A stretch of 12,216 nucleotides of DNA from an uncultured delta proteobacterium (lineage in GTDB: Bacteria > Desulfobacterota > Desulfomonilia > UBA1062), in the NCBI GenBank assembly GCA_963798485.1, contig CAWCTR010000012.1:1-12216 (forward strand), given 5' to 3'. Each line of letters starts with the position of its first letter. The stretch's first letter is position 1. The notes beneath the pieces were generated by a model, which was not told where the DNA came from, did not search any database, and was given only the letters and a program-made list of their open reading frames with translations. This document shows positions 1-12,216 of this stretch, in pieces. Made by a program: the position numbers and the translations under genes.

Positions 1-330
1 TGCCTGCGGTGGATGTGTATACGTGTGCCCCTCATGCACCTGCTTCAATGTCATGGACCGTACGGTTAATCCAGAAACCGGGGAGAGGATACGCGCCTGG
101 GATACCTGTCTTTATGGCGGATTCACCCGCGAGGCGTCCGGGCACAACCCCCGGTCAACTCAGCGCTACGGCTCAAGAGGAGACACGAGCATAAGCTCCT
201 TTATTGTAACAAAACCGACATTCAGGAGGCATTGTGCGGGTGTGTGGGCTGTGGCCGCTGTTCCGATTACTGCCCTGTCCACATCGGCACCCTTGAGGTA
301 ACAAAGGCCATTGTGGAGCACATCTATTGA
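1..330 (+). CDS. 3' part of a 4Fe-4S dicluster protein (AsrA / sulfhydrogenase beta HydB / FlxB-like), with one apparent frameshift at ~163
   Basis: The frame from base 2 reads ACGGCVYVCPSCTCFNV...GERIRAWDTCLYGGFTREASGHNPRSTQ. After a one-base shift at ~163 it continues ALRLKRRHEHKL...GCVGCGRCSDYCPVHIG...IY to TGA at 328-330. The CPxCxCF, R.R.WDxC...F...ASGHNPR and CVGCGRC...CP motifs are typical of this family. The gene is 5'-truncated by the window. Confidence 0.85.
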
Positions 331-347
331 TTGCAAGGAGGTATTCC

Positions 348-756
348 ATGCCCGAGGTGAAGAACAAGAAAATACTCATTATAGATGACGACAATGATTA
401 GGGGGACGCCTTGAAGATCGTACTGGAAAACAATGGATACGCCGTGATACACGCATTGAATATCGCCGATGGGAGGGCTTCGGTTGAGAAAGACCCGCCG
501 GACCTCATTATCCTTGATGTGATGATGGAAAAGCATACGACGGGTTCGACCTGTGCGCCGATCTCAAGAATGATCAGGCCTGCTCCATGATCCCATCATT
601 ATGGTCACGGCCGTTACCGAGAAGACAGGCTTCAAATTCTCTCCTGTTACGGATGGCGAATACCTGAGGGCGAATGATTACATTTCAAAACCGGTTACGG
701 TATCCGTTCTCCTTTCCCGCGTAAACAAGCTCCTGAGCGAGGGAAAGGCCTTCTGA
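348..756 (+). pseudogene. Single-domain response regulator (REC), disrupted as sequenced by an in-frame TAG and two frameshifts
   Basis: An AAGGAGG RBS precedes ATG 348. It reads MPEVKNKKILIIDDDND*(TAG 399-401)GDALKIVLENNGY...PPDLIILDVMMEKHT. After a shift at ~539 it reads DGFDLCADLKND...MI, and after a shift at ~593 IIMVTAV...DYISKPV...LLSEGKAF to TGA 754-756. All receiver motifs (DD, phospho-D, T, KP) are recoverable. Confidence 0.85.
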
Positions 757-810
757 TAAGGCACTCCCCTTCCCTTTTGGTTCTTAAGGAGAAGAATTCC
801 TCTTGATCCG

Positions 811-839
811 TTGATCGGATTCGATCGAAGTGCTATTAT
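811..839 (+). promoter_or_regulatory. Putative sigma70 promoter for the kinase/activator operon
   Basis: TTGATC (811-816), a 17-bp spacer, then TATTAT (834-839) preceded by an extended -10 TG (831-832). Confidence 0.5.
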
Positions 840-864
840 AGTAGCATTCATTAGTAGCATTCAT
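839..864 (+). repeat. 13-bp perfect tandem duplication TAGTAGCATTCAT x2
   Basis: Read directly: 839-851 and 852-864 are identical. Confidence 0.9.
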
Positions 865-901
865 TTTGACAGAGGAGGATGAGTTCTCTTAACGACCTTA
901 G

Positions 902-2869
902 ATGAAACTACAAAGCCGCCTCGTCATAGGTTTTCTGATCGCCACATGCCTCACAGGGGTTGTTGCTTCGGTGGTGGGGATACAGCTGATAAACAAAACA
1001 GCCCTTGACGAGGTGCAGCGCAAGGTACAGCAGGACATCAACACCGCCCAGCTTGTCTACCGCCACAACCTGGAGAGGCTCGAATACCAGCTCCAGTTCA
1101 TCGCGCTTCGTTCCCCCATCCACGAGGCTATCTTGTCCGGCAACCTCGAGCCTCTGGAAGATTTACGAGTACTCATCAGGAGCGGCACCTACCAGTCCCC
1201 GGAGCATATGGCCCTTGACATGCTCACCCTGGTCGACACCAATGGCAAGGTTATCTACCGCGCGGCAAATCCGAACACAAAGGGAGATGTAATACTCTGG
1301 GACTCGGTGGTGAGGGCTTGTCTCAAAGAGAAAAAACCCACGTCTTCCGCCATAATCATGCCTTATGAAGTTATTGTGGCCCAGAACCCCAACCTGGCCG
1401 AACGGATAAAGATACCCATCGTAAAGACGGAAAAGTCAGTGGAGATCAAAGAAAAGGTCCTTTCCCGGGGAATGGTTCTCAGGGCAGCCTACCCCATTGT
1501 GGACAAGAACCATAACCTGCTCGGCGCACTTGTCGGCGGGGTATTGTTGAACTACGATTACAGCATTGTAGATACCATCAAGGAGACCGTGTACCGTGAC
1601 GAGCGGTACAAAGGCCGGGACATGGGGTTTGCCACGATCTTTCTTGGTGGTGTAAGGATCTCCACCAATGTGATGAATAAAAAGAACCAGAGGGCAGTCG
1701 GAACCATCGTGTCCAAAGAAGTCTATGACCAGGTCATAGGCCGGGGTAAGGACTGGATAGGCAGGGCCTTTGTGGTAAATGACTGGTACATAAGCTCCTA
1801 TACCCCCATCTGGGATATCGACAACAATATCATCGGCATGCTCTACACCGGTATTTTGGAGGCGAAATACCGTGATATGCGGATGAAGACCGTGCTCCTC
1901 TTCCTGGGTATCACCTCGCTTGGCATGGTAATGGCCTTCTTTATCTCTTTCCGGCTCGGACAGGGCATTATCCGCAGGATCAGGATCCTAAAGCAGGCAA
2001 CGGATGCCATCTCTTCAGGCAACCTCGATTACCAGCTCCCTCCGGGCCGGTCATCGGGCTTCGATGTGCTCGATGAGGCCTTCAACAACATGGCGCGCTC
2101 GCTCAAAGACAGGGATGACCGGCTCCAGAAGGCCTTCCAGCGCATCACCAGCACCGAACGGCTTGCCTCATTAGGCCAGATGGCGGCCGGTGTGGCCCAT
2201 GAGATCAACAACCCGTTAGGCGGCATCCTCCTCTACAGCAACCTGGTGCTCGAGGAGATGACCCAAGGCAATTCATCCAGAAATAACATGGAAAAGATCA
2301 TCTATCAGACCGAGCGATGCAAGAAGATAGTCCAGAACCTGCTCGATTTTGCCCGCACACCTTCCGGAGATATGGAGTCCCTTTCCATAAACGAGGTTAT
2401 CCTTACCTCGCTCAATCTGGTGAAGGACCAGTCCATATTCCATGGCATTGAGGTGAAGACCGAGCTTGCACCAAACCTCCCTTACGTGATGGGCGACCTG
2501 TCCAGACTGGAAGAGGTCTTCTTGAACCTGTTCATCAATGCAGTAGACGCCATGGAGGGAAAGGGCACCATCAAGGTTTCGAGCAGGATTTCCAGTACGG
2601 GCATGGTGAAGATCTACATAACCGATACGGGAAAGGGCATTGATAAGGCCTACCTGCCCCACATCTTCGAACCCTTCTTCACCACCAAGGAGCCCGGCCA
2701 GGGTACAGGGCTCGGACTGTCGATAACCTATGGCATCATCCAGAAGCATGGCGGTATACTCGATGTGGAGAGTGAACCCGGCAAAGGGACGACATTTGCC
2801 ATTACGCTGCCGCCGTTGAATACCAATGATAAAACCGAGAGCGGACAGGAGGAATGCAGCATTGGCTAA
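902..2869 (+). CDS. Membrane sensor histidine kinase (TM - Cache-type sensor domain - TM - HAMP - HisKA - HATPase_c), NtrB-like
   Basis: 655 aa. It has two TM segments, a Cache-like ATIFLGGVRISTNV...RAVGT...YISSYTPI...IGMLYTG stretch, a HAMP region, the H-box AAGVAHEINNPL, the N-box NLFINAVDAM, and DTGKGI, FEPFFTTK and GTGLGL boxes. Confidence 0.95.
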   Translation: MKLQSRLVIGFLIATCLTGVVASVVGIQLINKTALDEVQRKVQQDINTAQLVYRHNLERLEYQLQFIALRSPIHEAILSGNLEPLEDLRVLIRSGTYQSPEHMALDMLTLVDTNGKVIYRAANPNTKGDVILWDSVVRACLKEKKPTSSAIIMPYEVIVAQNPNLAERIKIPIVKTEKSVEIKEKVLSRGMVLRAAYPIVDKNHNLLGALVGGVLLNYDYSIVDTIKETVYRDERYKGRDMGFATIFLGGVRISTNVMNKKNQRAVGTIVSKEVYDQVIGRGKDWIGRAFVVNDWYISSYTPIWDIDNNIIGMLYTGILEAKYRDMRMKTVLLFLGITSLGMVMAFFISFRLGQGIIRRIRILKQATDAISSGNLDYQLPPGRSSGFDVLDEAFNNMARSLKDRDDRLQKAFQRITSTERLASLGQMAAGVAHEINNPLGGILLYSNLVLEEMTQGNSSRNNMEKIIYQTERCKKIVQNLLDFARTPSGDMESLSINEVILTSLNLVKDQSIFHGIEVKTELAPNLPYVMGDLSRLEEVFLNLFINAVDAMEGKGTIKVSSRISSTGMVKIYITDTGKGIDKAYLPHIFEPFFTTKEPGQGTGLGLSITYGIIQKHGGILDVESEPGKGTTFAITLPPLNTNDKTESGQEECSIG

Positions 2870-4223
2870 AAAGACCAGGCGCACCCTGATCATCGACGAT
2901 GAAGAATCCATACGGGACGGATGCCAGCAGATCCTGGCCAGGATAGGACATGAAGTGGAGAGTACGGGCGATGCTGAACACGGTATCCAATTGGCCCTGC
3001 ATAACCACTTTGATGTCATCCTTCTGGATGTGCGCCTCCCCAAGATAGAGGGGCTCGATGTTTTGAAGATCCTCAAAAAGGATCACCATATAACCTCCAA
3101 GGTAATCATCATTACGGGCTACGGTACCATCCCGCTGGCTGTTGAGGCCATGCGTTTAGGCGCTATGAATTTCCTCACCAAACCCTTCGGCGCTGAAGAT
3201 CTCAGAAATGCAATTCATGAGAGTCTTGATGCCGCGGTGAGTAATGAGAAAGAAGATACCTTGTCCATGCTGATCGGCAGCAGCGATTACATGAAGGAAT
3301 TGAAAGACACAATCAGACGGGTCGCCCAGACCGACAGTACCGTGCTTATAACCGGCGAGAGCGGAACAGGCAAAGAACTGGTTTCACGAACCATCCACAA
3401 CATGAGCAGGCGTTTTGACAAACCGTTCATCCCGGTTGACTGTTCATCCCTGGTGCAGAACCTCATGGAAAGTGAGCTCTTCGGCCATATACGCGGGGCA
3501 TTCAGCGGCGCAACAGACTCCCGCGACGGCCGTTTCCAGATAGCCGACACGGGTACGCTTTTTCTTGATGAGATCTCGAACATCAGCCTCGAAACCCAGG
3601 CCAAGCTGCTGAGGGTTATTCAGGAACAGGAGATCCCCAGGGTGGGCAGTTCCATACCCGAAAAGGTGGACGTGAGGCTGATTACCGCCACGAACAAAGA
3701 CTTAAGATGCGAGGTTGATACAGGACGATTCCGTGAAGACCTCTTCTATCGCATCTCGGTGGTGCCCATACACATCAAGCCCCTGCGGGATCACCGATCG
3801 GACATCATCGAGCTTGCCAAGCATTACCTTGATGTCTTCCGGGAAAGGCACAAATCCGCGGCCGGTTTCTTCTCGATTGATGCGGTAAAGTCATTGAACT
3901 CCTATGCATGGCCGGGGAATATCCGGGAGCTTAAGAATACGATCGAGCGCCTGTGTGTGCTGTGCGATCATGAAGAGGTGAGCCTCTCGGATATCCTCTA
4001 TTATGGGCAGGACACACACGCCAAGGCCCCGGTTATCGATCCGTTCTCCGGCAAGATGCGCCTCGTGGATGTGGAAAAGGAACACATTGAAAAGGCGTTG
4101 AAGCATTATAATTATCACATGAACAACACTGCAAAGTTTCTCGGTATCGATCGCAAGACGTTGCGCACCAAGATAAGGACCTATGGTATTATCACCGATA
4201 TCAAGGATGAAACCGGTGATTAG
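2862..4223 (+). CDS. Sigma54-dependent response regulator (NtrC family: REC - AAA+ - Fis HTH)
   Basis: REC motifs IIDDE, LLDVRLP and TKPF; Walker A GESGTGKE; ESELFGHIRGAFSGA; Walker B LFLDEI; FREDLFYRI; WPGNIREL; HTH AKFLGIDRKTLRTK. The start is probably TTG 2862 behind CAGGAGG (2846-2852), overlapping the kinase stop. The ORF track starts at ATG 2826. Confidence 0.95.
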   Translation: MAKKTRRTLIIDDEESIRDGCQQILARIGHEVESTGDAEHGIQLALHNHFDVILLDVRLPKIEGLDVLKILKKDHHITSKVIIITGYGTIPLAVEAMRLGAMNFLTKPFGAEDLRNAIHESLDAAVSNEKEDTLSMLIGSSDYMKELKDTIRRVAQTDSTVLITGESGTGKELVSRTIHNMSRRFDKPFIPVDCSSLVQNLMESELFGHIRGAFSGATDSRDGRFQIADTGTLFLDEISNISLETQAKLLRVIQEQEIPRVGSSIPEKVDVRLITATNKDLRCEVDTGRFREDLFYRISVVPIHIKPLRDHRSDIIELAKHYLDVFRERHKSAAGFFSIDAVKSLNSYAWPGNIRELKNTIERLCVLCDHEEVSLSDILYYGQDTHAKAPVIDPFSGKMRLVDVEKEHIEKALKHYNYHMNNTAKFLGIDRKTLRTKIRTYGIITDIKDETGD

Positions 4224-4228
4224 GTTCT

Positions 4229-4268
4229 AGGGGACATCTTCCTCACCCTTGGGGAGATTTTACCCAAG
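4229..4268. promoter_or_regulatory. Candidate tandem upstream activator sites for a sigma54 enhancer-binding protein
   Basis: AGGGGACATCTTCCTCA (4229-4245) and TGGGGAGATTTTACCCA (4250-4266) are 12/17 identical, imperfectly palindromic and 21 bp apart. The second lies within CTTGGG-N9-CCCAAG (4248-4268). Confidence 0.55.
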
Positions 4269-4327
4269 ATAACTCCCCTGATTTTCATTCAAAGAATTAA
4301 GTAAAGTAATTTCAATGGGATGAAACA

Positions 4328-4343
4328 TGGCACTTTACTTGCT
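4328..4343 (+). promoter_or_regulatory. Sigma54 (-24/-12) promoter
   Basis: TGGCAC-TTTAC-TTGCT matches the TGGCAC-N5-TTGC consensus. It lies 37 bp upstream of ATG 4381 and directly downstream of a sigma54 activator gene. Confidence 0.85.
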
Positions 4344-4380
4344 TTTCTCATGCCAGAGATCCTTTAAGGAGGTGTAGGCT

Positions 4381-4767
4381 ATGGATGCAAAGAAAAAGGT
4401 GCTTTTGATTGACGATGACAAAGACTTCCTGCTCGCAACCAAACTTATCCTCGAAAACGGCGGCTATGAGGTCTTTCTGGCCGAGGATGGAAAGGCAGGA
4501 GTGGACATGGCGAAATCACTTTACCCTGACATTGCCATCATCGATATGATGATGGAGACCTGGAGTGAGGGTTTCAATGTGGTATCAAGGCTGAGGACCT
4601 CGGATACGGGCAAGAAGATACCCCTTATCATGCTCAGCGCCGTTGACCTGCAGGGTCCTTACCAATCCTTTGAACCGCCTGACGAGCTCCCCACTGTGGA
4701 CCTTGTACTGCACAAACCTATCAAGGCTGATGAACTGTTAAAATTCGTGGGTCAGCTCCTGAGGTAA
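4381..4767 (+). CDS. Single-domain response regulator (REC)
   Basis: 128 aa with an AAGGAGG RBS; motifs LLIDDD, IIDMMME, IMLSAV and HKPI. Confidence 0.93.
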   Translation: MDAKKKVLLIDDDKDFLLATKLILENGGYEVFLAEDGKAGVDMAKSLYPDIAIIDMMMETWSEGFNVVSRLRTSDTGKKIPLIMLSAVDLQGPYQSFEPPDELPTVDLVLHKPIKADELLKFVGQLLR

Positions 4768-4774
4768 TACTTCA

Positions 4775-5887
4775 ATGGATGACAAGGCTGATTTTTCAGC
4801 CAGGATTCTCATCATCGACGACGAGGAGTCTATCCTCGATGGTTGCAGACAGGCCCTGGAAAAATCGGGCTATACGGTAATAACCACATCGAACGGGCCT
4901 GACGGCATAAGGCTCTCGAGGGCTGAAAAGCCCAACCTGGCCTTTGTTGATCTCAAGATGCCGAGCTGTTCCGGCATGGATATCATCGAGCTGCTTTCCA
5001 AAGAAATGCCCGATATCGTGTTGATCGTGATTACCGGGTATGCCTCCATCGTCTCCGCGGTGGAGGCCATGAAAAAGGGCGCCTATGATTATTTGCCTAA
5101 GCCCTTTACCCCTGACCAGATCAGGGCGGTTACCAAGAGGGCGCTCGAACACAGGTTCCTCAAGATCGAGGCTGACCGGCTCAGGGAAGAAAAAGAACGC
5201 ATGGAGAGAAGCTTCATAACCTTTGTCAGCCACGAGATGCGTTCCCCGCTGGTCACCATCATGCAGTATTTTGAGACACTGAAGGTGATTTACGAGAACA
5301 GCCTCGAACAGAATGCAAAGGATATTATCGACCGCTGTGAGAAAAGGCTTCAGGGGCTCCACGACCTTGTGGAGCACTGGCTCGATCTTGCCAGGATCGA
5401 GGACGGCTCTTTTTCCGAGGCCAAGACGCCGATTGTGCTCACTGAAATCCTGGAGAAGGCTATTGAAGAGCTCACCCCCTTGTGCCAGAGGAGAGAGATT
5501 ACCCTTGAGGCAATCATAAATGAGTCCTCGGCCAAGACCATGGGCGACCAGGAGAGCCTGATGAGGGTATTCACCAACGTGATAGGCAATGCAACAAAAT
5601 ATACCCCGCCCGGCGGGAAGATTACCGTAACCATGACTCATGATGATTACTATGTTTATGTGAATATCGCAGATACCGGCTTAGGCATTCCCGCCGACAA
5701 GCTGCCCTTCATCTTTGAACCGTTCTTCAGGGTGAAAGGCAAGGAAGAGCGCCAGAAGGGTTCAGGCCTGGGGCTGACCTTCGTCAAAAAGATTATGGAC
5801 GCCCACAACGGGAATATCGACGTGACATCGCAAGAAGGTGTCGGAACGTCTTTTCTTCTGAAATTTCCCAGGCTTTACGAGCTTTAA
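4775..5887 (+). CDS. Cytoplasmic hybrid kinase REC - HisKA - HATPase_c
   Basis: 370 aa. REC motifs IIDDE, FVDLKMP and PKPF; H-box VSHEMRSPL; NVIGNATKYT; DTGLGI; FEPFFR; GSGLGL. No TM segment is evident. Confidence 0.95.
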   Translation: MDDKADFSARILIIDDEESILDGCRQALEKSGYTVITTSNGPDGIRLSRAEKPNLAFVDLKMPSCSGMDIIELLSKEMPDIVLIVITGYASIVSAVEAMKKGAYDYLPKPFTPDQIRAVTKRALEHRFLKIEADRLREEKERMERSFITFVSHEMRSPLVTIMQYFETLKVIYENSLEQNAKDIIDRCEKRLQGLHDLVEHWLDLARIEDGSFSEAKTPIVLTEILEKAIEELTPLCQRREITLEAIINESSAKTMGDQESLMRVFTNVIGNATKYTPPGGKITVTMTHDDYYVYVNIADTGLGIPADKLPFIFEPFFRVKGKEERQKGSGLGLTFVKKIMDAHNGNIDVTSQEGVGTSFLLKFPRLYEL

Positions 5888-5891
5888 ACGC

Positions 5892-6116
5892 CTATTCGCT
5901 CTTTCCCTTTATGCCTTCCCATGGTCTGGTATTATCCAGCAGGTATTCTTCCAGGTTACCCACCATGCATTCCCCGCACATATGCACCATCTTCATACTG
6001 GAGACCTGCCGGACAATGAAAAGCTTTTGACAATTCTGGCTGCACAGGAAACACTTTTCAGCGATGTCTTTCTCGTGAAACTCGTAACACTGCTCATCCA
6101 TGTATGTACATTTCAT
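5892..6116 (-). CDS. Small Cys-rich, putative metal(Zn)-binding protein
   Basis: 74 aa with an AGGAG RBS upstream on the minus strand. It has 7 Cys including CFLC and CGEC pairs. It fills the gap convergent with the hybrid kinase, leaving 4 bp between the stops. Confidence 0.75.
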   Translation of the reverse strand: MKCTYMDEQCYEFHEKDIAEKCFLCSQNCQKLFIVRQVSSMKMVHMCGECMVGNLEEYLLDNTRPWEGIKGKSE

Positions 6117-6227
6117 AAATGTCTCCTATGTCAATCCTACCATAGAATAACGCAGGCATCAACAATGCGGCCTTGATCATTTTGCTATTTTGTTTTTAGC
6201 CGCCAATGCATTGAGCCTTCCAGCACT

Positions 6228-6318
6228 GCGGGTGGGCGGAGCGCAGCGTAACCCGCCATGATCGTAGGGGCAGAGCTTATCCCCGCCCTGTTGTAGGGGC
6301 AGGTCTTGTGCCTGCCCT
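6228..6318 (+). repeat. Cluster of three REP-like hairpins (two of GTAG type)
   Basis: GCGGGTGGGCGGAGCGCAGCGTAACCCGCC (6228-6257), GTAGGGGCAGAGCTTATCCCCGCCCT (6264-6289), and GTAGGGGCAGGTCTTGTGCCTGCCCT (6293-6318, stem GGGCAGG/CCTGCCC). A GTAG tetranucleotide at the foot of a hairpin is the REP hallmark. Confidence 0.7.
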
Positions 6319-6517
6319 TGTGCTGGATCTCATTACTCCACTCATCACCCGATCCTGCCCAAAACATCCAAACCTTTGACAACTTTCCTCTCTTCCTGCT
6401 ATAAATGCAGTATAAGAACGCACCATGAAATGGAATGACAGCAGATATGAGTGTATTGAGAGGAGGGCCCGGATCATCCACACGCATCCACCCTTATCAG
6501 ACGGAGTCTGCGCGATA

Positions 6518-7525
6518 TCAGCCCATGCGGTCGAGCGGACTTTGCAGCTGCCGGATGTCCCGGGCCATGACATGGGTATAGATCTCGGTGGTCTTGACAT
6601 CAGCATGACCGAGGAGTTCCTGAAGCACCCGGATGTTCACCCCGTTTTCCAGCATATGGGTTGCGAAGCTGTGCCTCAGAGTGTGGCAGCCGACCTTTTT
6701 GTCGATCCTGGCCTCTTCCGCAGCCCGCTTCACCGCCTTCTGCAACCCGGATTCGAGCACATGATGGCGCATCTCCCGGCCCGAACGCGGGTCAATGGAA
6801 CGCTCCCTTGCCGGGAACACCCACTGCCAGACGGTTTCCCGTCCGGCATGTGGATATTTCCTGGCCAGGGCCTCAGGGATATATACCTCCCCAAATCCTT
6901 GTTCAAAATCCTTATGATGAAGAGCTTTCACCGCCTGCACCTGCTTCTGCAGCTCGTCCTTAAGATTTTTAGGCAGGATGGTGGTCCTGTCCTTCCCGCC
7001 CTTACCGCCCCGGATAAAGATGAGGCCTTGGCCGAAATCCACATCCTGAACACGCAGGCGGATACATTCAAGCAGACGCAGGCCGCCGCCATAGAGCAGC
7101 TTTGCCATAAGGGCGTGCTTACCCGTCATGGCGGCCAACAAACGCTTAATCTCTGCCTGAGTGAGGACGGTGGGCGGCCTTTGCTGCCGTTTGCTGCGCG
7201 CCGGTGCGATCTCTCCGGCCAAAGGTTTGTCAAGGACATCCCGATAGAGAAAAACCAGGGCGTTCAGGGCCTGCCGCTGGGTGGAGGCGGACACTTTGCC
7301 TTCGGTTGCGAGATGGGAAAGAAATCGTTCGACATCCTTCGCCCCGAGCATGTTCGGATGGGTCTTGCCGCCGAAATGATGGATATAGCGGAGCATCCAC
7401 TGACAATAGGTCTGCTCGGTGCGGTAAGCATAATGATGATAGCGAAGCACTTCGCGCACCTGATCCATGAGCTTGAGGCTGGGATTCGGACGAAATTTCG
7501 GTTTGTTTTTCGTTTGACTTTCCAT
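6518..7525 (-). CDS. intI: Integron integrase (tyrosine recombinase)
   Basis: 335 aa. N-terminal SAM-like motifs HYAYRTEQTY and VSASTQRQALNALVFLY; catalytic motifs GLRLLE, GKGGKDR, HTLRHSFATH and LGHADVKTTEIYTH; and the IntI-specific insertion VYIPEALARKYP...WQWVFP...RHH. Confidence 0.97.
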   Translation of the reverse strand: MESQTKNKPKFRPNPSLKLMDQVREVLRYHHYAYRTEQTYCQWMLRYIHHFGGKTHPNMLGAKDVERFLSHLATEGKVSASTQRQALNALVFLYRDVLDKPLAGEIAPARSKRQQRPPTVLTQAEIKRLLAAMTGKHALMAKLLYGGGLRLLECIRLRVQDVDFGQGLIFIRGGKGGKDRTTILPKNLKDELQKQVQAVKALHHKDFEQGFGEVYIPEALARKYPHAGRETVWQWVFPARERSIDPRSGREMRHHVLESGLQKAVKRAAEEARIDKKVGCHTLRHSFATHMLENGVNIRVLQELLGHADVKTTEIYTHVMARDIRQLQSPLDRMG

Positions 7526-7760
7526 AACCTATTGCACAATATCTTAATATGTGGAAACTGACCAGAGAAAATGTAATAAGCGTACATAAATCTGGTGTTG
7601 TTTCCATCTTTGGAGATTAATACAAAAATAAGCGGAAATACCGTCCATCTATAGGTGGTAATATGACGGACAAGATTCTGCTTATTGCACTGATAAGCGG
7701 ACCGCTCGCTGACGCTCGCTTGACCTTCGGTCATCCGCTTATCGGTCGCTGTTGAGCTTC

Positions 7761-7818
7761 GCTCTAACACACTTGATAGCTCCGCGCTTCGCGCTCCGCC
7801 TATCAAGCGCGTTAGAGC
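7761..7818. other. Orphan attC-like hairpin with no associated ORF
   Basis: GCTCTAAC-ACAC-TTGATAG...GCGC-TTC-GCGC...CTATCAA-GCGC-GTTAGAGC. The 8-bp AAC/GTT ends are perfectly complementary and the 7-bp inner boxes pair. Length is 58 bp. The extra-base position is non-canonical. Confidence 0.6.
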
Positions 7819-7832
7819 CGTCTGCGATTCTC

Positions 7833-7872
7833 GGCAGGGGGTGGGAATAAAAACCCATTCCCACCCCCTGCC
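7833..7872. repeat. 16-bp perfect inverted repeat (8-nt loop)
   Basis: GGCAGGGGGTGGGAAT (7833-7848) pairs with ATTCCCACCCCCTGCC (7857-7872). There is no flanking U-tract. Confidence 0.9.
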
Positions 7873-7885
7873 TGCGAGTCTCGCG

Positions 7886-7906
7886 GCTCAACAGCGACCG
7901 TTCGAT
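7886..7906 (+). other. Putative attI core / crossover point of the first cassette (G|TTCGAT at 7900/7901)
   Basis: GTTCGAT (7900-7906) is the exact reverse complement of R'' ATCGAAC (8353-8359) of the first attC, as expected for an integrated cassette. It is preceded by GCTCAAC-AGCGACC. Confidence 0.65.
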
Positions 7907-7921: not shown

Positions 7922-8305
7922 ATGAGAGTGATTCTTTTCGCATCTATTTTGATGCCGGCTATTTCTTGCCAGTTGTTCCAATCAGGCTCAAATAGACTTC
8001 CAAGCAAGGCACCTGAAAAAAAATACATAAAGGATGGAATAATTGAAACCTATTACGAAGAACTCACCATGCAAAACGAAAAAGAACTGCAAAAGGAAGC
8101 AGGAAAACGCTATGAGATGCATGGATGGAACTGGAAGGCCTGGGATGGTTGGAAATTTCGTAAGGATGGTAAATTCAAAGAAGGAGATCGCTTATGGTAT
8201 TTTTCTACAGATCCTGATAGTTGGAAGAATCTTGCAGGAAGGCTTGGGTTCTGCGTGAAAAGAGGTGAAGAGATCATTGCAGAGATAATCATTCTGATGA
8301 ATTAA
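7922..8305 (+). CDS. Cassette 1: hypothetical lipoprotein (127 aa)
   Basis: A strong RBS AGGAGGAG (7910-7917) precedes ATG 7922. MRVILFASILMPAIS|C looks like a lipoprotein signal. The C-terminus GDRLWYFST...SWKNLAGRLGF..KRG..I.....MN is Trp/Gly-rich. The longer 7841 start would cross the cassette boundary. Confidence 0.8.
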   Translation: MRVILFASILMPAISCQLFQSGSNRLPSKAPEKKYIKDGIIETYYEELTMQNEKELQKEAGKRYEMHGWNWKAWDGWKFRKDGKFKEGDRLWYFSTDPDSWKNLAGRLGFCVKRGEEIIAEIIILMN

Positions 8306-8427: not shown

Positions 8428-8994
8428 ATGAATAGTAAGTCAGAAACGTTGGAGTCTTTTCTGATATCAAAAGAACGAGTGTTGATGGATGTGTGCGTAA
8501 GGTCGCAGTTCATCGTGAGCGAGACCGATGTATTGGCTAAACACTATTCACTCATTGATGCCGCGATTCAAGACCATGACGATTTCATTGTTTCTACTGA
8601 ATGGAGGATCAAGAATACGCTAAGGGACCGGTTTGATCTTGTTGTTGTCAAGAAATGGGTAAAACCATATGCTCACCGAAAACAGTGCTTCGCGGACAAT
8701 CTGCCATACTACGCTGCGGAATACAAGGTTGATGATGAACAAGGGCGATACGGAAAGGCGGAGCAAATTGAGGCTTTCAAGAAAGACGTTATAAGACTTG
8801 CCAAGAACTGCCATTACTTGCACAGGGCATTTGCTTTGTATTACTACAGAGGGCCGAAGGCGATCGAAGACAGTCTGCTTGACAGCAATTCATCCAAGTA
8901 CGTGTTTCGTGACACTGATGATACTATCGTCAAGCAGAAACTGCACGTTTACGTCGTCGATAGGCTTGGTGTCCATAGGCTTGATTTTTCATAG
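8428..8994 (+). CDS. Cassette 2: putative PD-(D/E)XK (restriction-endonuclease-fold) nuclease
   Basis: 188 aa with ordered motifs SETD (helix), VSTE, RFDLVVV, AAEYK and KKDVIRL, consistent with an E...D...ExK active site. Confidence 0.7.
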   Translation: MNSKSETLESFLISKERVLMDVCVRSQFIVSETDVLAKHYSLIDAAIQDHDDFIVSTEWRIKNTLRDRFDLVVVKKWVKPYAHRKQCFADNLPYYAAEYKVDDEQGRYGKAEQIEAFKKDVIRLAKNCHYLHRAFALYYYRGPKAIEDSLLDSNSSKYVFRDTDDTIVKQKLHVYVVDRLGVHRLDFS

Positions 8995-9082: not shown

Positions 9083-9139
9083 ACCGAACCAGCAAATCCA
9101 GCGGACGGCTTTCAGCCGCCGCTGATCCGCACGTTATCT
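9083..9139 (+). other. attC of cassette 2 (canonical)
   Basis: ACCGAAC-CAGCA-AATCCAGC-GG-A-CGGCT-TTC-AGCCG-CC-GCTGATC-CGCAC-GTTATCT. It shows R''/L''/L'/R' boxes, 5-bp spacers, and extra C and A bases in the left arm (extrahelical G and T on the bottom strand). Length is 57 bp. Confidence 0.92.
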
Positions 9140-9213
9140 AGAAAAATACTGAATATCAAAATAGCCCGCCATTACCCAAAGTAGGGCAATGTCAGAGGAG
9201 GAATTGTACGTAT

Positions 9214-12108
9214 ATGAAATACTCCGGTCATTATTTATTATTCCGCCTAAAATGCCTTGATTCAAAAGCTAATGACTTCCAGAAGCTCTTTGAGCGTATT
9301 ATGGCGATCCATGACAAAACATTTATGCCTGTAAAGCCGGCAGGTCCTGATGGGGACTGGAAATGTGATGGTTACTCCGCCGCAAGTCAGACCGTTTATC
9401 AATGCTATGCTCCAATTGAGTTGAAGAGTGGCAAAACTACTCGGAAAATTCATGAAGATTTTCAGGGTGCAGTGCAGAAGTGGTCTGAAAAGATGAGACA
9501 GTGGACTTTTGTTTGGAACTCAGATGCTCTTCCTCCTCAAGTGGTCGCTGCACTCGCGGAGCTTTCGGCAAATAACAAAGGACAGATAACCATTGAACAA
9601 CTTGGACCGCAAAAGTTGTGGGATGAGGTGGTTTCGAAATTTACAAAATCCGACTTAGATGAATTGCTTGGGGAGATTCCCACTTCGTCTGATGCCCAAG
9701 GTGCACAGCTCCGGTTGGCTGGAAAAGCATTGAGGCGGGACGATTTGCAGCTAGCCAAAGAACTCTGTCAAGATGTTCTCAACTCGTCAAAAAACGACGG
9801 GGGGCTGCTTCAGGAATATTTTGAAGCATGCAATTACATGGTAGTTCTTGCGCTTGAGGAGAAGAATCAGAAAAGCGCGCGAAAATATCTTTCACTATCT
9901 GCCGATCTTTTAGGTGAAAATATTCGACCTGTGCTCCGCGCTCAGTTTTTTCAATTGGAAGGGGCGCTGCTTCTTCGTGAGCAGCGTGCTGAAGAAGCCG
10001 TAGATGCATTTATGAAAGGCTTGAAAATCAAAGCACCTCCATCACCCGAAAAGGAAAAGGGCGTGCCTGTAGAGGAGCTACAGTGCGGAATTAGAGCCGA
10101 GCTCATTCTATTTTTTGCACAGACTAATCAAACAAAACAGGCCCGCGCGCACGCTGATGCTGCGGAGTCGTACATTCGGGCTCACCCCGAAGCCCAGGAT
10201 GGACACTTGTTGCCCTTCGTGGCAGATGCTCTAATTTCGCTAGCTGCTCGCATGCGCAACCTGAAGCGTGCAAGCAGGGCACTCAAGCTATTGGAAGAAC
10301 ACTGCATGACTCATGAATCAGCAAGTGCTGCGGCAAGAGTATTGCAAAAGCTAACAGGACGAGCGGGGCTTATTGGGGCACTGAATATTGCAAAGGCATG
10401 TTGTGACTTGTCATCTCTCATGGCAAAACGGGCAGAGTTGACAGAAGATTTTTGGGTAGCTCAGTATAATGCTGCTGGTATCTATTTGCAGCTTGGCAAA
10501 ATTGCAGAAGCACAGAAGCGCCTTCAAATGCTTTGGCCTCTGCTGAATTCCGACGAATTCCCCAAGGAAATGAAGGCAGCCATTCTCATGCTGGCATCAG
10601 AGTTAGCAGCTAGGCAGGGGGACCACTTACAAGCAGTGGAACTCCAAAAGCAAGTCGTTTCCTATACCAGCTCTGACCCTTTCAATCTAGCAGCTTCATC
10701 CTTCCATCTTGCCAACAAATTCAAGTCTATAGGAAGTGTCGAGGAAGCCTGTGAATCCTTTGAAACCGCTGCTCAGATCGGAAAAGAGTGCGATGCTCCG
10801 GGGGAGTTCCTCTTCGATGTTATAGCTCCTTGGTGTGAATCCGAAATGCTTCTGGGCCACTGGGAAAAAGCAGAAAGTTTGCTTGAACAACTTGGTACTC
10901 TGCCCCGCCCCGCGCAATTCAAAGATAATGCAATTGAAGGACTTAAACAACAACTTGAAGGAAGCAAAGAAATCCGGCGACGCATTGACGAAATTAGACA
11001 ATTGCAGCCAGAAGAACTTTTACCAACTTTGCTGGAATCAAATGCAGCCGCCTTCAAGCCTCTTCTTGACTGGTGGCAAGAAATTAAGGCTCGAAAATCG
11101 GACAAGTCAAAGGATGGTGCTGGCTTAAACATCCTCTATGATTACTGGGGCTGCGGCGGCGCGGTCGAAGTAATGGCAAATTTACGACGATTTGCTCCAG
11201 ACCACTTTTCTCCATTCATAGAAGTTCGCTCATTAACAGAAATTCGCCGTGCTGTTCGCATGTTCTCTCTCTTCTCCGACACTCTTGTGCTGCTATGGAA
11301 AGGCCCGGTTAACTCAGGCCAAGTTCTTTCTATAGTCCCGTTTGATCATGTGAAAGGTGGTTCGGGGTATCTGTTTGCTTTAGCTGACATCGCATTTGAA
11401 TCACCGTCATCTGGTCCATGGTTTCCGGCAATCGGAATGGGAGCTTTCCTGCCTGAAGAGGTATGCGTATTTTTAGCAACGGAAGCCGCGCCTTTACTAA
11501 AACAAGGACGGCTCGTTTTGCTCCCAGCTCCAGCAGTTGGCTGCTGGCAACCTCATCATGGGCCATGCGAAAATCTACTCGTTGACTTAATGGGGACATC
11601 GCTTTTAATTAACCGAGGTTCTGTAACTTCCGATTTTCCGGTGGCTATAATACCGTATTTCGAGGATGCACCACTTGAAGCCATAGCTGATTTATTGGGT
11701 GAGCATCATGACCAAACAAGACGACTGCGCCTCGCTTTACTGAGAAAAAACCGTGAACTTAGAGCACATGGGACCCCAGAAGGTGCCAGCAGAGAACTGC
11801 GTGATGAGATAACGGAGGCCTTTGTTGAGTGGAAAGATTTGAATAAGAGAATGGCAGCAAGATATCATTGGCGGAATGAGGAGGACATGTTGGCGGCAAA
11901 AACCTTCAGCTTCCAAAATCAATGGTCTTCCTTTTTTACCCTAAGCCGACTCGGTTATCGTTGGACTGTAGGCTCTGTAAACGAGCTCAAGAGTGACACT
12001 GCAAAATTCCATGTAAAAAAAGGTACGCCCTTCGGGAACTGGCTAAAGCCTCCCTACGAAGGAAAGCTGATACCTACGATGCAGTTGACAGATTCCAAAC
12101 AGGGCTGA
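9214..12108 (+). CDS. Cassette 3: 964-aa protein with an N-terminal REase-fold nuclease-like domain, a TPR-like helical region and an uncharacterised C-terminal domain
   Basis: The N-terminus reads FQKLFERIM...GDWKCDGY...VYQCYAP...KIHEDFQGA...WTFVWN. Residues ~165-590 are Ala/Leu-rich TPR-like repeats (e.g. YNAAGIYLQLGKIAEAQKRL, FHLANKFKSIGSVEEACESFETA). Residues ~600-964 look like a mixed alpha/beta domain. GAGGAGG lies upstream at 9195-9201. Confidence 0.8.
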   Translation: MKYSGHYLLFRLKCLDSKANDFQKLFERIMAIHDKTFMPVKPAGPDGDWKCDGYSAASQTVYQCYAPIELKSGKTTRKIHEDFQGAVQKWSEKMRQWTFVWNSDALPPQVVAALAELSANNKGQITIEQLGPQKLWDEVVSKFTKSDLDELLGEIPTSSDAQGAQLRLAGKALRRDDLQLAKELCQDVLNSSKNDGGLLQEYFEACNYMVVLALEEKNQKSARKYLSLSADLLGENIRPVLRAQFFQLEGALLLREQRAEEAVDAFMKGLKIKAPPSPEKEKGVPVEELQCGIRAELILFFAQTNQTKQARAHADAAESYIRAHPEAQDGHLLPFVADALISLAARMRNLKRASRALKLLEEHCMTHESASAAARVLQKLTGRAGLIGALNIAKACCDLSSLMAKRAELTEDFWVAQYNAAGIYLQLGKIAEAQKRLQMLWPLLNSDEFPKEMKAAILMLASELAARQGDHLQAVELQKQVVSYTSSDPFNLAASSFHLANKFKSIGSVEEACESFETAAQIGKECDAPGEFLFDVIAPWCESEMLLGHWEKAESLLEQLGTLPRPAQFKDNAIEGLKQQLEGSKEIRRRIDEIRQLQPEELLPTLLESNAAAFKPLLDWWQEIKARKSDKSKDGAGLNILYDYWGCGGAVEVMANLRRFAPDHFSPFIEVRSLTEIRRAVRMFSLFSDTLVLLWKGPVNSGQVLSIVPFDHVKGGSGYLFALADIAFESPSSGPWFPAIGMGAFLPEEVCVFLATEAAPLLKQGRLVLLPAPAVGCWQPHHGPCENLLVDLMGTSLLINRGSVTSDFPVAIIPYFEDAPLEAIADLLGEHHDQTRRLRLALLRKNRELRAHGTPEGASRELRDEITEAFVEWKDLNKRMAARYHWRNEEDMLAAKTFSFQNQWSSFFTLSRLGYRWTVGSVNELKSDTAKFHVKKGTPFGNWLKPPYEGKLIPTMQLTDSKQG

Positions 12109-12152
12109 ACAAACTGAATAAGAAAATGGGGACAGATTTAAATTTTAAAAAT

Positions 12153-12180
12153 GTCTAACCAACAAATCCACCGGACGGAG
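12153..12180 (+). other. Left half of the attC of cassette 3 (interrupted)
   Basis: GTCTAAC-CAACA-AATCCACC-GGACGG closely parallels the left arm of attC2 (ACCGAAC-CAGCA-AATCCAGC-GGACGG). The complementary right arm and GTT are absent from the remaining 36 bp. Confidence 0.75.
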
Positions 12181-12216
12181 GACTTCCCCAGAAAAAGTGG
12201 ACACTAAAACCTAACT
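12179..12216. mobile_element. Possible terminal inverted repeat of an IS3-family element inserted in the attC loop
   Basis: AGGACTTCCCCAGAAAAAGTGGACAC resembles the ..GAC..CCCC..AAAA.TGGACAC pattern I recall for IS3-family ends, but it lacks the usual 5'-TG. No transposase is visible because the window ends here. Confidence 0.4.

Follow-up and report, generated by a model that had tools for sequence, protein, structure and literature searches.

The window analysed here, by which the whole stretch of 12,216 bases is meant, corresponds to the entire contig C12 (CAWCTR010000012.1) of a genome assembly obtained from an uncultured delta proteobacterium (GCA_963798485.1; 4.3 Mb, 32 contigs, 97.5% complete, 6.96% contamination). 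It hosts an integron, and a large cassette of the array carries a single open reading frame (ORF), which encodes a protein of 964 amino acids (aa) called P0001. The protein is made of three modules, an N-terminal domain with the PD-(D/E)xK fold of restriction endonucleases (REases), a TPR-like solenoid spanning some 435 aa, and a C-terminal domain of 360 aa belonging to a rare family (hereafter N-domain, TPR region and C-domain, respectively). Coordinates of all features are reported in Table 1.

Table 1. Features identified in the window, with positions counted from its first base
Feature	Position	Strand	Details
Integron integrase gene intI	6518..7525	-	NCBIfam TIGR02249, E 2.7e-131, 437.6 bits (cut-off 265); Pfam Phage_integrase and Phage_int_SAM_4
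Presumed attI crossover region, end of the conserved platform	7687..7692	.	identity to contig C19 ends at 7692
attC-like hairpin of the short ORF-less first cassette	7761..7818	+	19-nt arms, 89% complementary; bottom strand -20.7 kcal/mol, z -4.06, 0/200 shuffles as good
Small cassette ORF	7841/7923-8305	+	154 or 127 aa, depending on the start
Second small cassette ORF	8428-8994	+	188 aa
attC2, 5' boundary of the large cassette	9083..9139	+	crossover G9133/T9134; R'' ACCGAAC 9083-9089, R' GTTATCT 9133-9139
Large cassette, single ORF	9134..12216	+	at least 3083 bp; bounded by attC2 and a half attC
Shine-Dalgarno-like GAGGAGG	9195..9201	+	read from the sequence; 12 nt 5' of the ATG
964-aa ORF (P0001)	9214..12108	+	open throughout; eight full-length homologues at 44-79% identity
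N-terminal REase-fold effector domain, ABC-three-component (ABC-3C) type	9214..9708	+	aa 1-165
TPR-like helical repeat region	9709..11013	+	aa 166-600
Conserved C-terminal domain, family-defining, remotely DUF6236-like	11014..12105	+	aa 601-964
5' half (R''-L'') of the next attC	12153..12178	+	GTCTAAC, then 20/22 bases (12157-12178) matching the attC2 5' half

P0001 is thus encoded in a mobile cassette of the integron. The bottom strand of attC2 folds into a hairpin with bulged bases (-15 kcal/mol, z -3.18), a result matched by only one of 200 shuffled sequences. The site belongs to a family of attCs present on contigs C3, C5, C7 and C11. Its 16-nt core, allowing up to 2 mismatches, has 16 occurrences in the genome, and the reversed control has 2. 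At the opposite end, no return arm is found from the half site to the end of the contig at 12216, and the stretch alone does not fold (z +0.52). The term half attC is therefore correct, and a complete 3' attC is not demonstrated. The cassette hosts no second credible gene, the other ORFs of at least 60 aa (six on the minus strand, 61-119 aa long, and one of 97 aa on the plus strand) being all located inside the P0001 ORF. The description of the locus as an oversized one-gene cassette, put forward in a first-pass annotation of the same DNA, is thus borne out. Defence systems are reported to be enriched in integron cassettes, which are constrained in size (10.1101/2024.07.02.601686). This fits the setting of P0001 and, given such constraint, makes a 3-kb cassette unusual.

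The start codon of P0001 agrees with that of the homologues, which likewise begin with MKYSGH. The motifs listed in the first-pass annotation (F22..LF26..IM30, G47DWKCDGY54, Y62QCYAP67, K78I..DF83, W97.FV.N102, SLFSDTLVL, PLLKQGRLVLLP, PYFEDAPLEAIADL, RRLR) have all been located in the protein, and those at the N-terminus fall on invariant, or nearly invariant, columns of an alignment of 58 sequences. Scans of the whole protein were largely silent. No Pfam family scored above cut-off, no family of PADLOC-DB v2.0.0 matched at E<=0.1, so that P0001 corresponds to no described system in that collection, and the sole match among Protein Data Bank (PDB) sequences was FinO (E 0.29). Walker A and B motifs were not detected by regular expressions, nor were NACHT, NB-ARC or AAA domains by Pfam.

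The N-terminal 165 aa are confidently predicted to adopt an REase fold with an alpha-beta-beta-beta-alpha-beta core, and the Avs4 structure (PDB 8dgf) is among the structural matches. The domain is 35-47% identical to the effector domain of ABC-3C proteins of about 300 aa (Lamassu-like, PADLOC PDC-M68A), as well as to SAVED and NACHT fusions. Relatives were searched by pattern and tblastn. The N-domain was found in 5 further genome loci and, in metagenomes, 123 of 361 candidate stretches encode it; the best 80 of the 123, which were kept, are mostly ORFs of about 300 aa. In plasmids, 121 records match by tblastn residues ~8-160 of P0001, and that stretch only. Among the 25 plasmid matches listed, all but two are annotated as 'ABC-three component system protein', the remaining ones being a 'conserved hypothetical protein' and a match with no underlying feature; one plasmid operon which was read encodes the effector, middle component 6 and an ATPase. 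Ten N-domain relatives were compared with Pfam: six carry the CTD10 domain of ABC-3C proteins (four above cut-off), one a SAVED domain (5.9e-33), three no known family. PADLOC assigns the CTD part of the relatives to the candidate system PDC-M68A, and the genes located 3' of two relatives encode PDC-M68B/LmuB-like ATPases (1e-148, 1e-197). The N-domains of two relatives weakly match the LmuA model PDLC03852 (2e-5, 8.4e-5). In protein P0013 the N-domain is fused to a NACHT module. All this sustains the resemblance to REase-fold effectors of ABC-3C and Lamassu type which had been recognized at first from the N-terminal pattern.

Additional arrangements of this REase-type domain, which lacks the canonical catalytic lysine, were encountered. 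The domain is fused to SAVED at locus L059 (8936-10240), a layout of the CBASS effector type, is followed in P0012 by an unrelated and unannotated region of 430 aa, and resides at locus L005 (9848-11725) within a protein of 625 aa from an archaeal metagenome-assembled genome (MAG), which matches no family.

The effector (A) proteins of ABC-3C systems and P0001 are homologous over the N-terminal ~160 aa, and share the GDxKxDG, QxYxP and KxxxDF motifs. Yet, A proteins have a CTD10-type docking domain, and work with a middle component and an ABC/SMC ATPase. P0001 is devoid of all of these; its effector domain is followed instead by an array of TPRs and by another domain, of 360 aa. Since ABC ATPases and middle components normally accompany the same N-domain, one could argue that P0001 is just one part of a multi-gene system, the partner of which, for example an ATPase or a trigger-binding protein, resides in the next cassette, past the contig end, or at another locus of the genome. 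With the contig ending within the following attC, a downstream gene would have escaped attention. However, cassettes are independent units, P0001 misses the docking domain according to Pfam, and tblastn searches found no ABC-3C ATPase in the 97.5%-complete genome. Neither ABC/SMC-like ATPases nor middle components were detected by Pfam or PADLOC in the window, where the first-pass annotation had likewise seen no SMC/ABC partner and no Walker A motif. No second copy of the N- or C-domain occurs in the genome. Finally, 40 ORFs (38 surrounding four full-length homologues, plus the two additional cassette ORFs of the window) include no shared neighbour. P0001 has therefore no conserved partner gene, and its membership in a multi-gene system seems improbable.

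The middle region of P0001 gives only sub-threshold Pfam matches to TPR_8 (21.5 bits, cut-off 25.7) and ARM_TT21 (21.6 bits, cut-off 27). TPR families are clearly found in the homologues, which carry PF13424, PF14559 and PF07719, and in a set of 47 paralogues (TPR_12 in 11, TPR_2 in 8, TPR_MalT in 4); TPR_19 has been found among homologues and paralogues as well. In the same vein, the longer C-domain proteins P0163-P0166, retrieved by a word-based search, are all named 'TPR repeat protein'. The proposed TPR-like nature of this region thus holds for the family, whereas in P0001 itself it relies on matches below threshold. By analogy, the region may work as a sensor.

Across the eight full-length homologues, no part of the protein is as conserved as the C-domain. 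Its family, searched exhaustively by HMMER with a profile of 7 sequences, comprises 192 representatives at E<=1e-3, of which 139 reach E<=1e-10 and 51 reach E<=1e-30. Family members are mostly 950-1150 aa long and carry the C-domain at the C-terminus; in some proteins of about 400 aa, the domain stands alone. Neither the C-domain nor the chassis which it forms with the TPR region has a Pfam, PADLOC or PDB match, and the C-domain profile retrieved from the PDB coiled-coil noise only (E >=0.028). Conserved motifs are DxWG, WKG, GGxGY and GRLxxxPAPxVGC. CHAT-domain clusters were among the ESM Atlas leads for aa 601-964 (best 0.85, a value for which chance is not excluded). A caspase-like C-domain, suggested by the Cys of VGC, was considered and discarded, this residue being lost in the standalone subgroup. 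In the standalone proteins of about 400 aa (P0142, P0150-P0162) the C-terminal tail of the long forms is replaced by a glycine-rich, hydrophobic stretch, membrane-spanning in appearance.

The N-terminal effector is interchangeable on a constant TPR-C-domain chassis. The ABC-3C-type N-domain is found in 22 of 160 stored C-domain proteins. Pfam analysis of 47 long members which lack it revealed PNP_UDP_1 in 8, Mrr_cat in 5, Trypsin_2 and HNH_2 in 2 each, Pkinase, TIR_2 and DUF4365 in 1 each, and scans of single proteins place the swapped effectors at residues ~13-300. Effectors of the family thus include ABC-3C and Mrr-like REases, PNP/nucleosidases, trypsin-like proteases, HNH and TIR proteins, Ser/Thr kinases and DUF4365. 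PADLOC scans of nine single members, three of which gave matches, detected CBASS, PD-T4-6 and retron-type models, within the first ~360 residues only. A tally of the 47 members, which does not report positions, includes CBASS PN and endonuclease effectors, PD-T4-6 kinase, LmuA and SduA, as well as RT-protease and retron-type models. C-domain scores interleave across effector types, being 216 bits in P0025 (REase), 215 in P0026 (kinase) and 204 in P0033 (Mrr-like motif). The question of whether effectors are swapped among homologues, raised by the first-pass annotation, has therefore a positive answer.

Within the phylum the distribution is spotty. The C-domain was detected in 2 of 401 genomes, and in none of two genomes of the same genus and four of the same family; as no more than 4 candidates were considered in each genome, absences carry little weight. 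The closest named relatives are found in Thermoanaerobaculia and Acidobacteriaceae MAGs.

The architecture, the effector-type N-domain, the swapping of effectors, the lack of a nucleoside triphosphatase (NTPase) and of partners, and the carriage in a cassette lead us to infer that P0001 is a single-protein sensor-effector. In our opinion P0001 is probably a cytoplasmic, NTPase-less polypeptide of this kind, working in a biological conflict system which most likely is anti-phage. The notion of an effector fusion of a conflict system can be held with greater confidence than the terms nuclease and anti-phage. In the model proposed, the TPR and C-terminal parts would keep the effector inactive, and would sense a cue derived from the invader, probably a phage protein. 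Recognition of the cue would change the conformation, or the assembly state, of the protein. The N-domains, once released, would attack nucleic acids, presumably as dimers in the manner of FokI/Mrr-type domains, and the infected cell would be arrested, or killed, ahead of phage release. That the C-domain takes part in sensing is a conjecture.

Both the parts and the overall logic of P0001 are of known kinds. In Avs4 (PDB 8dgf), a Mrr-like nuclease is joined to a STAND ATPase and a TPR sensor bound to the phage portal, a similar logic. In contrast to Avs/AVAST proteins, P0001 lacks a STAND/NACHT NTPase, and has a conserved C-terminal domain missing from Avs. DSR2 is a protein with a SIR2 effector and a helical-repeat/C-terminal sensor, free of NTPase and activated by the phage tail tube protein. 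The same logic is seen in P0001, both being single proteins of about 1000 aa which feature an N-terminal effector, a helical repeat scaffold and a C-terminal region, and no NTPase. The effectors differ, SIR2 in one case and an REase-fold domain in the other, and no sequence relationship between the two proteins was found. The specific TPR-C-domain chassis is probably undescribed. The layout was not found in the portions of the literature covered, in Pfam (2025 copy), NCBIfam 20.0 and PADLOC 2.0.0, a statement which does not extend to the supplementary PDC tables, where the family or PDC-M68 may be listed. The layout is described neither in the TPR passages of Kaur et al. 2020 (PMC7159879), nor in a passage of Payne et al. 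(10.1101/2024.01.29.577857), and a literature search returned no paper on 'DUF6236' or 'PDC-M68'.

Several observations weigh against P0001 being an active anti-phage sensor-effector. Besides the lack of PADLOC matches, a Foldseek search of the PDB returned nothing at E<=0.001, with EcoT38I (3.9e-3) coming closest, and Pfam Mrr_cat does not match P0001 at E<=0.1. The active site is unusual. A local hhalign comparison of the N-domain with Mrr-like N-termini of paralogues (probability 73%, E 3e-5, 122 columns) pairs GDWKCD52G with G.D.GRD and YQ63CY65 with FQCK. D52 corresponds therefore to the motif Asp, and Tyr65 occupies, in 58 of 58 aligned sequences, the position of the canonical catalytic Lys in strand 3 of the D...(D/E/Q)xK motif. 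At the same position, Phe is found in the distant relatives P0013 and P0025. The N-domain and Mrr/FokI-type PD-(D/E)xK domains hence have the same core fold, and D52 and Q63 align to the D...QxK signature, but the latter domains keep the Lys. K50 or K78 may stand in for it; K50 is missing from P0013 and P0133, whereas K78xxxD82F is retained even in P0013. As the canonical Lys is gone, the term nuclease holds at the level of the fold only, and the predicted activity is not assured. Catalysis by the N-domain is putative, and its chemistry is the least certain step of the mechanism proposed. The AlphaFold2 model of the C-domain, built on a 7-sequence alignment, has a local confidence (pLDDT) of only 41.9, and is unusable. 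The Atlas model of the relative P0155 is no better (pLDDT 0.40), and the structural matches which it gave (TM-score <=0.31) were discarded as meaningless. The Cys of VGC and the Lys of WKG are lost in the standalone subgroup, and are therefore not proposed as catalytic. The genomic context is equally reticent. Most of the 38 ORFs flanking four full-length homologues look housekeeping-like; a SIR2_2 gene, a gene for a MmeI-type methylase and an integrase gene are the exceptions. Such surroundings resemble defence regions only weakly, and the homologues found elsewhere do not lie in integrons. The integrase (IntI) of the window has no tblastn match at seven loci of full-length homologues, four of which (L001, L002, L010, L012) with up to 10 kb on each side. 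No full-length homologue was found on plasmids, where tblastn gave N-domain matches only, and no C-domain relative among 51 pattern matches in viral contigs. Lastly, the assembly is partly contaminated, and contains two copies of the integron platform.

The loss of the Lys, the housekeeping-like surroundings of most homologues, and source names which say 'TPR repeat protein' and nothing more could be reconciled by assuming that the REase-fold domain is catalytically dead and binds nucleic acids or proteins, P0001 being a regulatory or scaffolding TPR protein. This is rather unlikely. In ABC-3C/PDC-M68A proteins and in SAVED and NACHT fusions an active effector is expected, and there is no candidate for this role other than the Lys-less domain. 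The columns invariant in the 58-sequence alignment (F37, G44, G47, D48, K50, D52, G53, Q63, Y65, P67, K78) include D48, K50, D52, Q63, Y65 and K78, a conservation at odds with a dead site. Moreover, in paralogues the place of the N-domain is taken by bona fide enzymes (PNP, trypsin, HNH, kinase, TIR), and the gene is patchy and cassette-borne.

Large chromosomal integrons are known to carry toxin-antitoxin cassettes. P0001 could be a toxin or addiction element which stabilizes the integron array, or a weapon directed against plasmids or other mobile genetic elements, rather than phages. Systems of the Lamassu type are reported to act on plasmids as well (PMC10586767). On the other hand, antitoxin-sized ORFs are missing beside the gene, in the cassette as in the homologous loci, and a TPR region of 435 aa plus a conserved domain of 360 aa exceed the needs of a simple toxin. 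Of all the alternatives to a single-protein sensor-effector, this appears the least probable, albeit slightly.

The C-domain had been described as loosely DUF6236-like. DUF6236 (PF19749) proteins are about 285 aa long and are found on plasmids and at prophage ends; unlike P0001, they feature neither a TPR region nor a fused effector. The Pfam model matches neither the C-domain of P0001 nor the genome which hosts it, and picks one of 30 family members at E 0.1. The two groups can be connected stepwise by local hhalign comparisons. The C-domain of long forms matches the standalone subgroup (probability 100%, E 1e-40, 350 columns), which in turn matches a set of 115 DUF6236 proteins (probability 89%, E 2.2e-6, 118 columns), and the direct comparison of all C-domains with DUF6236 gives a probability of 56% over 69 helical columns. 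Similarly, ESM Atlas features pair the standalone relative P0155 (C-domain E 2.6e-10) with DUF6236 clusters (0.97, 217/256 shared; 19 of 30 matches). The earlier description is hence a fair one, in the sense of a remote, partial and transitive link between profiles, and not of a direct match to the hidden Markov model. The DUF6236 protein of locus L096 exhibits a glycine-rich hydrophobic stretch similar to that of the standalone C-domain proteins. A DUF6236 gene is located directly after a gene encoding a HEPN domain in a small Acinetobacter plasmid (L100, 2934-4882), and the terminal part of a Vibrio phage genome hosts another, which adjoins an HNH gene (L101, 2808-4873). Pairs of this type may represent the two-gene counterpart of the fused effector-C-domain layout, a lead provided by two loci, and could be equally invoked by those who see P0001 as a component of a multi-gene system. 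At a more speculative level, the C-domain and its remote relative DUF6236 could conceivably constitute an unrecognized module which controls immune effectors, or senses invaders, independently of NTPases, both in cis, with at least eight effector types, and in trans, beside HEPN and HNH genes. Such a generalization is tentative, and rather doubtful at present. If true, a new class of single-gene innate immune receptors would emerge, the integron-cassette protein P0001 being one of its members.

In the rest of the window, two-component and sigma-54 regulators are encoded at 902-5887, as detected by Pfam, and are followed by intI. Cassette ORFs are on the plus strand, opposite to intI, the usual arrangement in integrons. 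Past attI, four units lie on the plus strand, namely the ORF-less attC-like hairpin, the small-ORF cassette, the cassette with the 188-aa ORF, and the large one. The two cassettes immediately upstream of the latter measure about 0.6 and 0.7 kb. Their ORFs match no Pfam or PADLOC family, and NCBIfam matches are far below threshold (E 0.0098, 0.073). If translated from the ATG at 7923, which is preceded by AGGAGG, the product of the first has a hydrophobic N-terminal stretch ending in Cys, lipoprotein-like in appearance.

Positions 1-7692 of the window, which include the two-component genes and intI, are 99.3% identical to contig C19 (7701-7, in reverse direction), and identity breaks exactly at 7692. 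The latter is presumed to be the attI crossover. The assembly hence seems to include two strain variants, sharing one platform and differing in the cassette arrays, a notion which fits the level of contamination. An element of ~80 bp starting at the presumed crossover (7687-7767) is present twice on contig C11 (655-716, 1406-1485) at 95-96% identity, and one copy is located directly behind an attC. In the window, inverted repeats which are perfect and nested come after the element (7743-7757 with 7886-7900; 7833-7848 with 7857-7872, terminator-like). Contig C5 carries at 12783-13736 another integron-integrase-like gene, sharing 50% identity with the IntI of the window, near three attC-like sites (8.4-8.9 kb). 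Sites of the same attC family are found also at the start of C11 (0.5-2.6 kb) and on C3 (~27-29 kb). The presence of attC sites on C5, C11 and C3 indicates that pieces of the cassette array are scattered across several contigs.

If the P0001 family protects bacteria against phages, it would represent an immune receptor in which effectors are swapped, and which dispenses with ATPases of both the STAND and the ABC/SMC type. How activation is controlled in the absence of nucleotide hydrolysis would become a question of interest. The C-domain, which has no model in Pfam, would acquire a first function, and so would DUF6236 by extension. About a hundred proteins of ABC-3C/PDC-M68, SAVED and NACHT type share the Lys-less REase domain, the chemistry of which therefore bears on several systems. 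Finally, a cassette of at least 3.1 kb suggests that integrons can carry full-size, and not only 'streamlined', defence genes.

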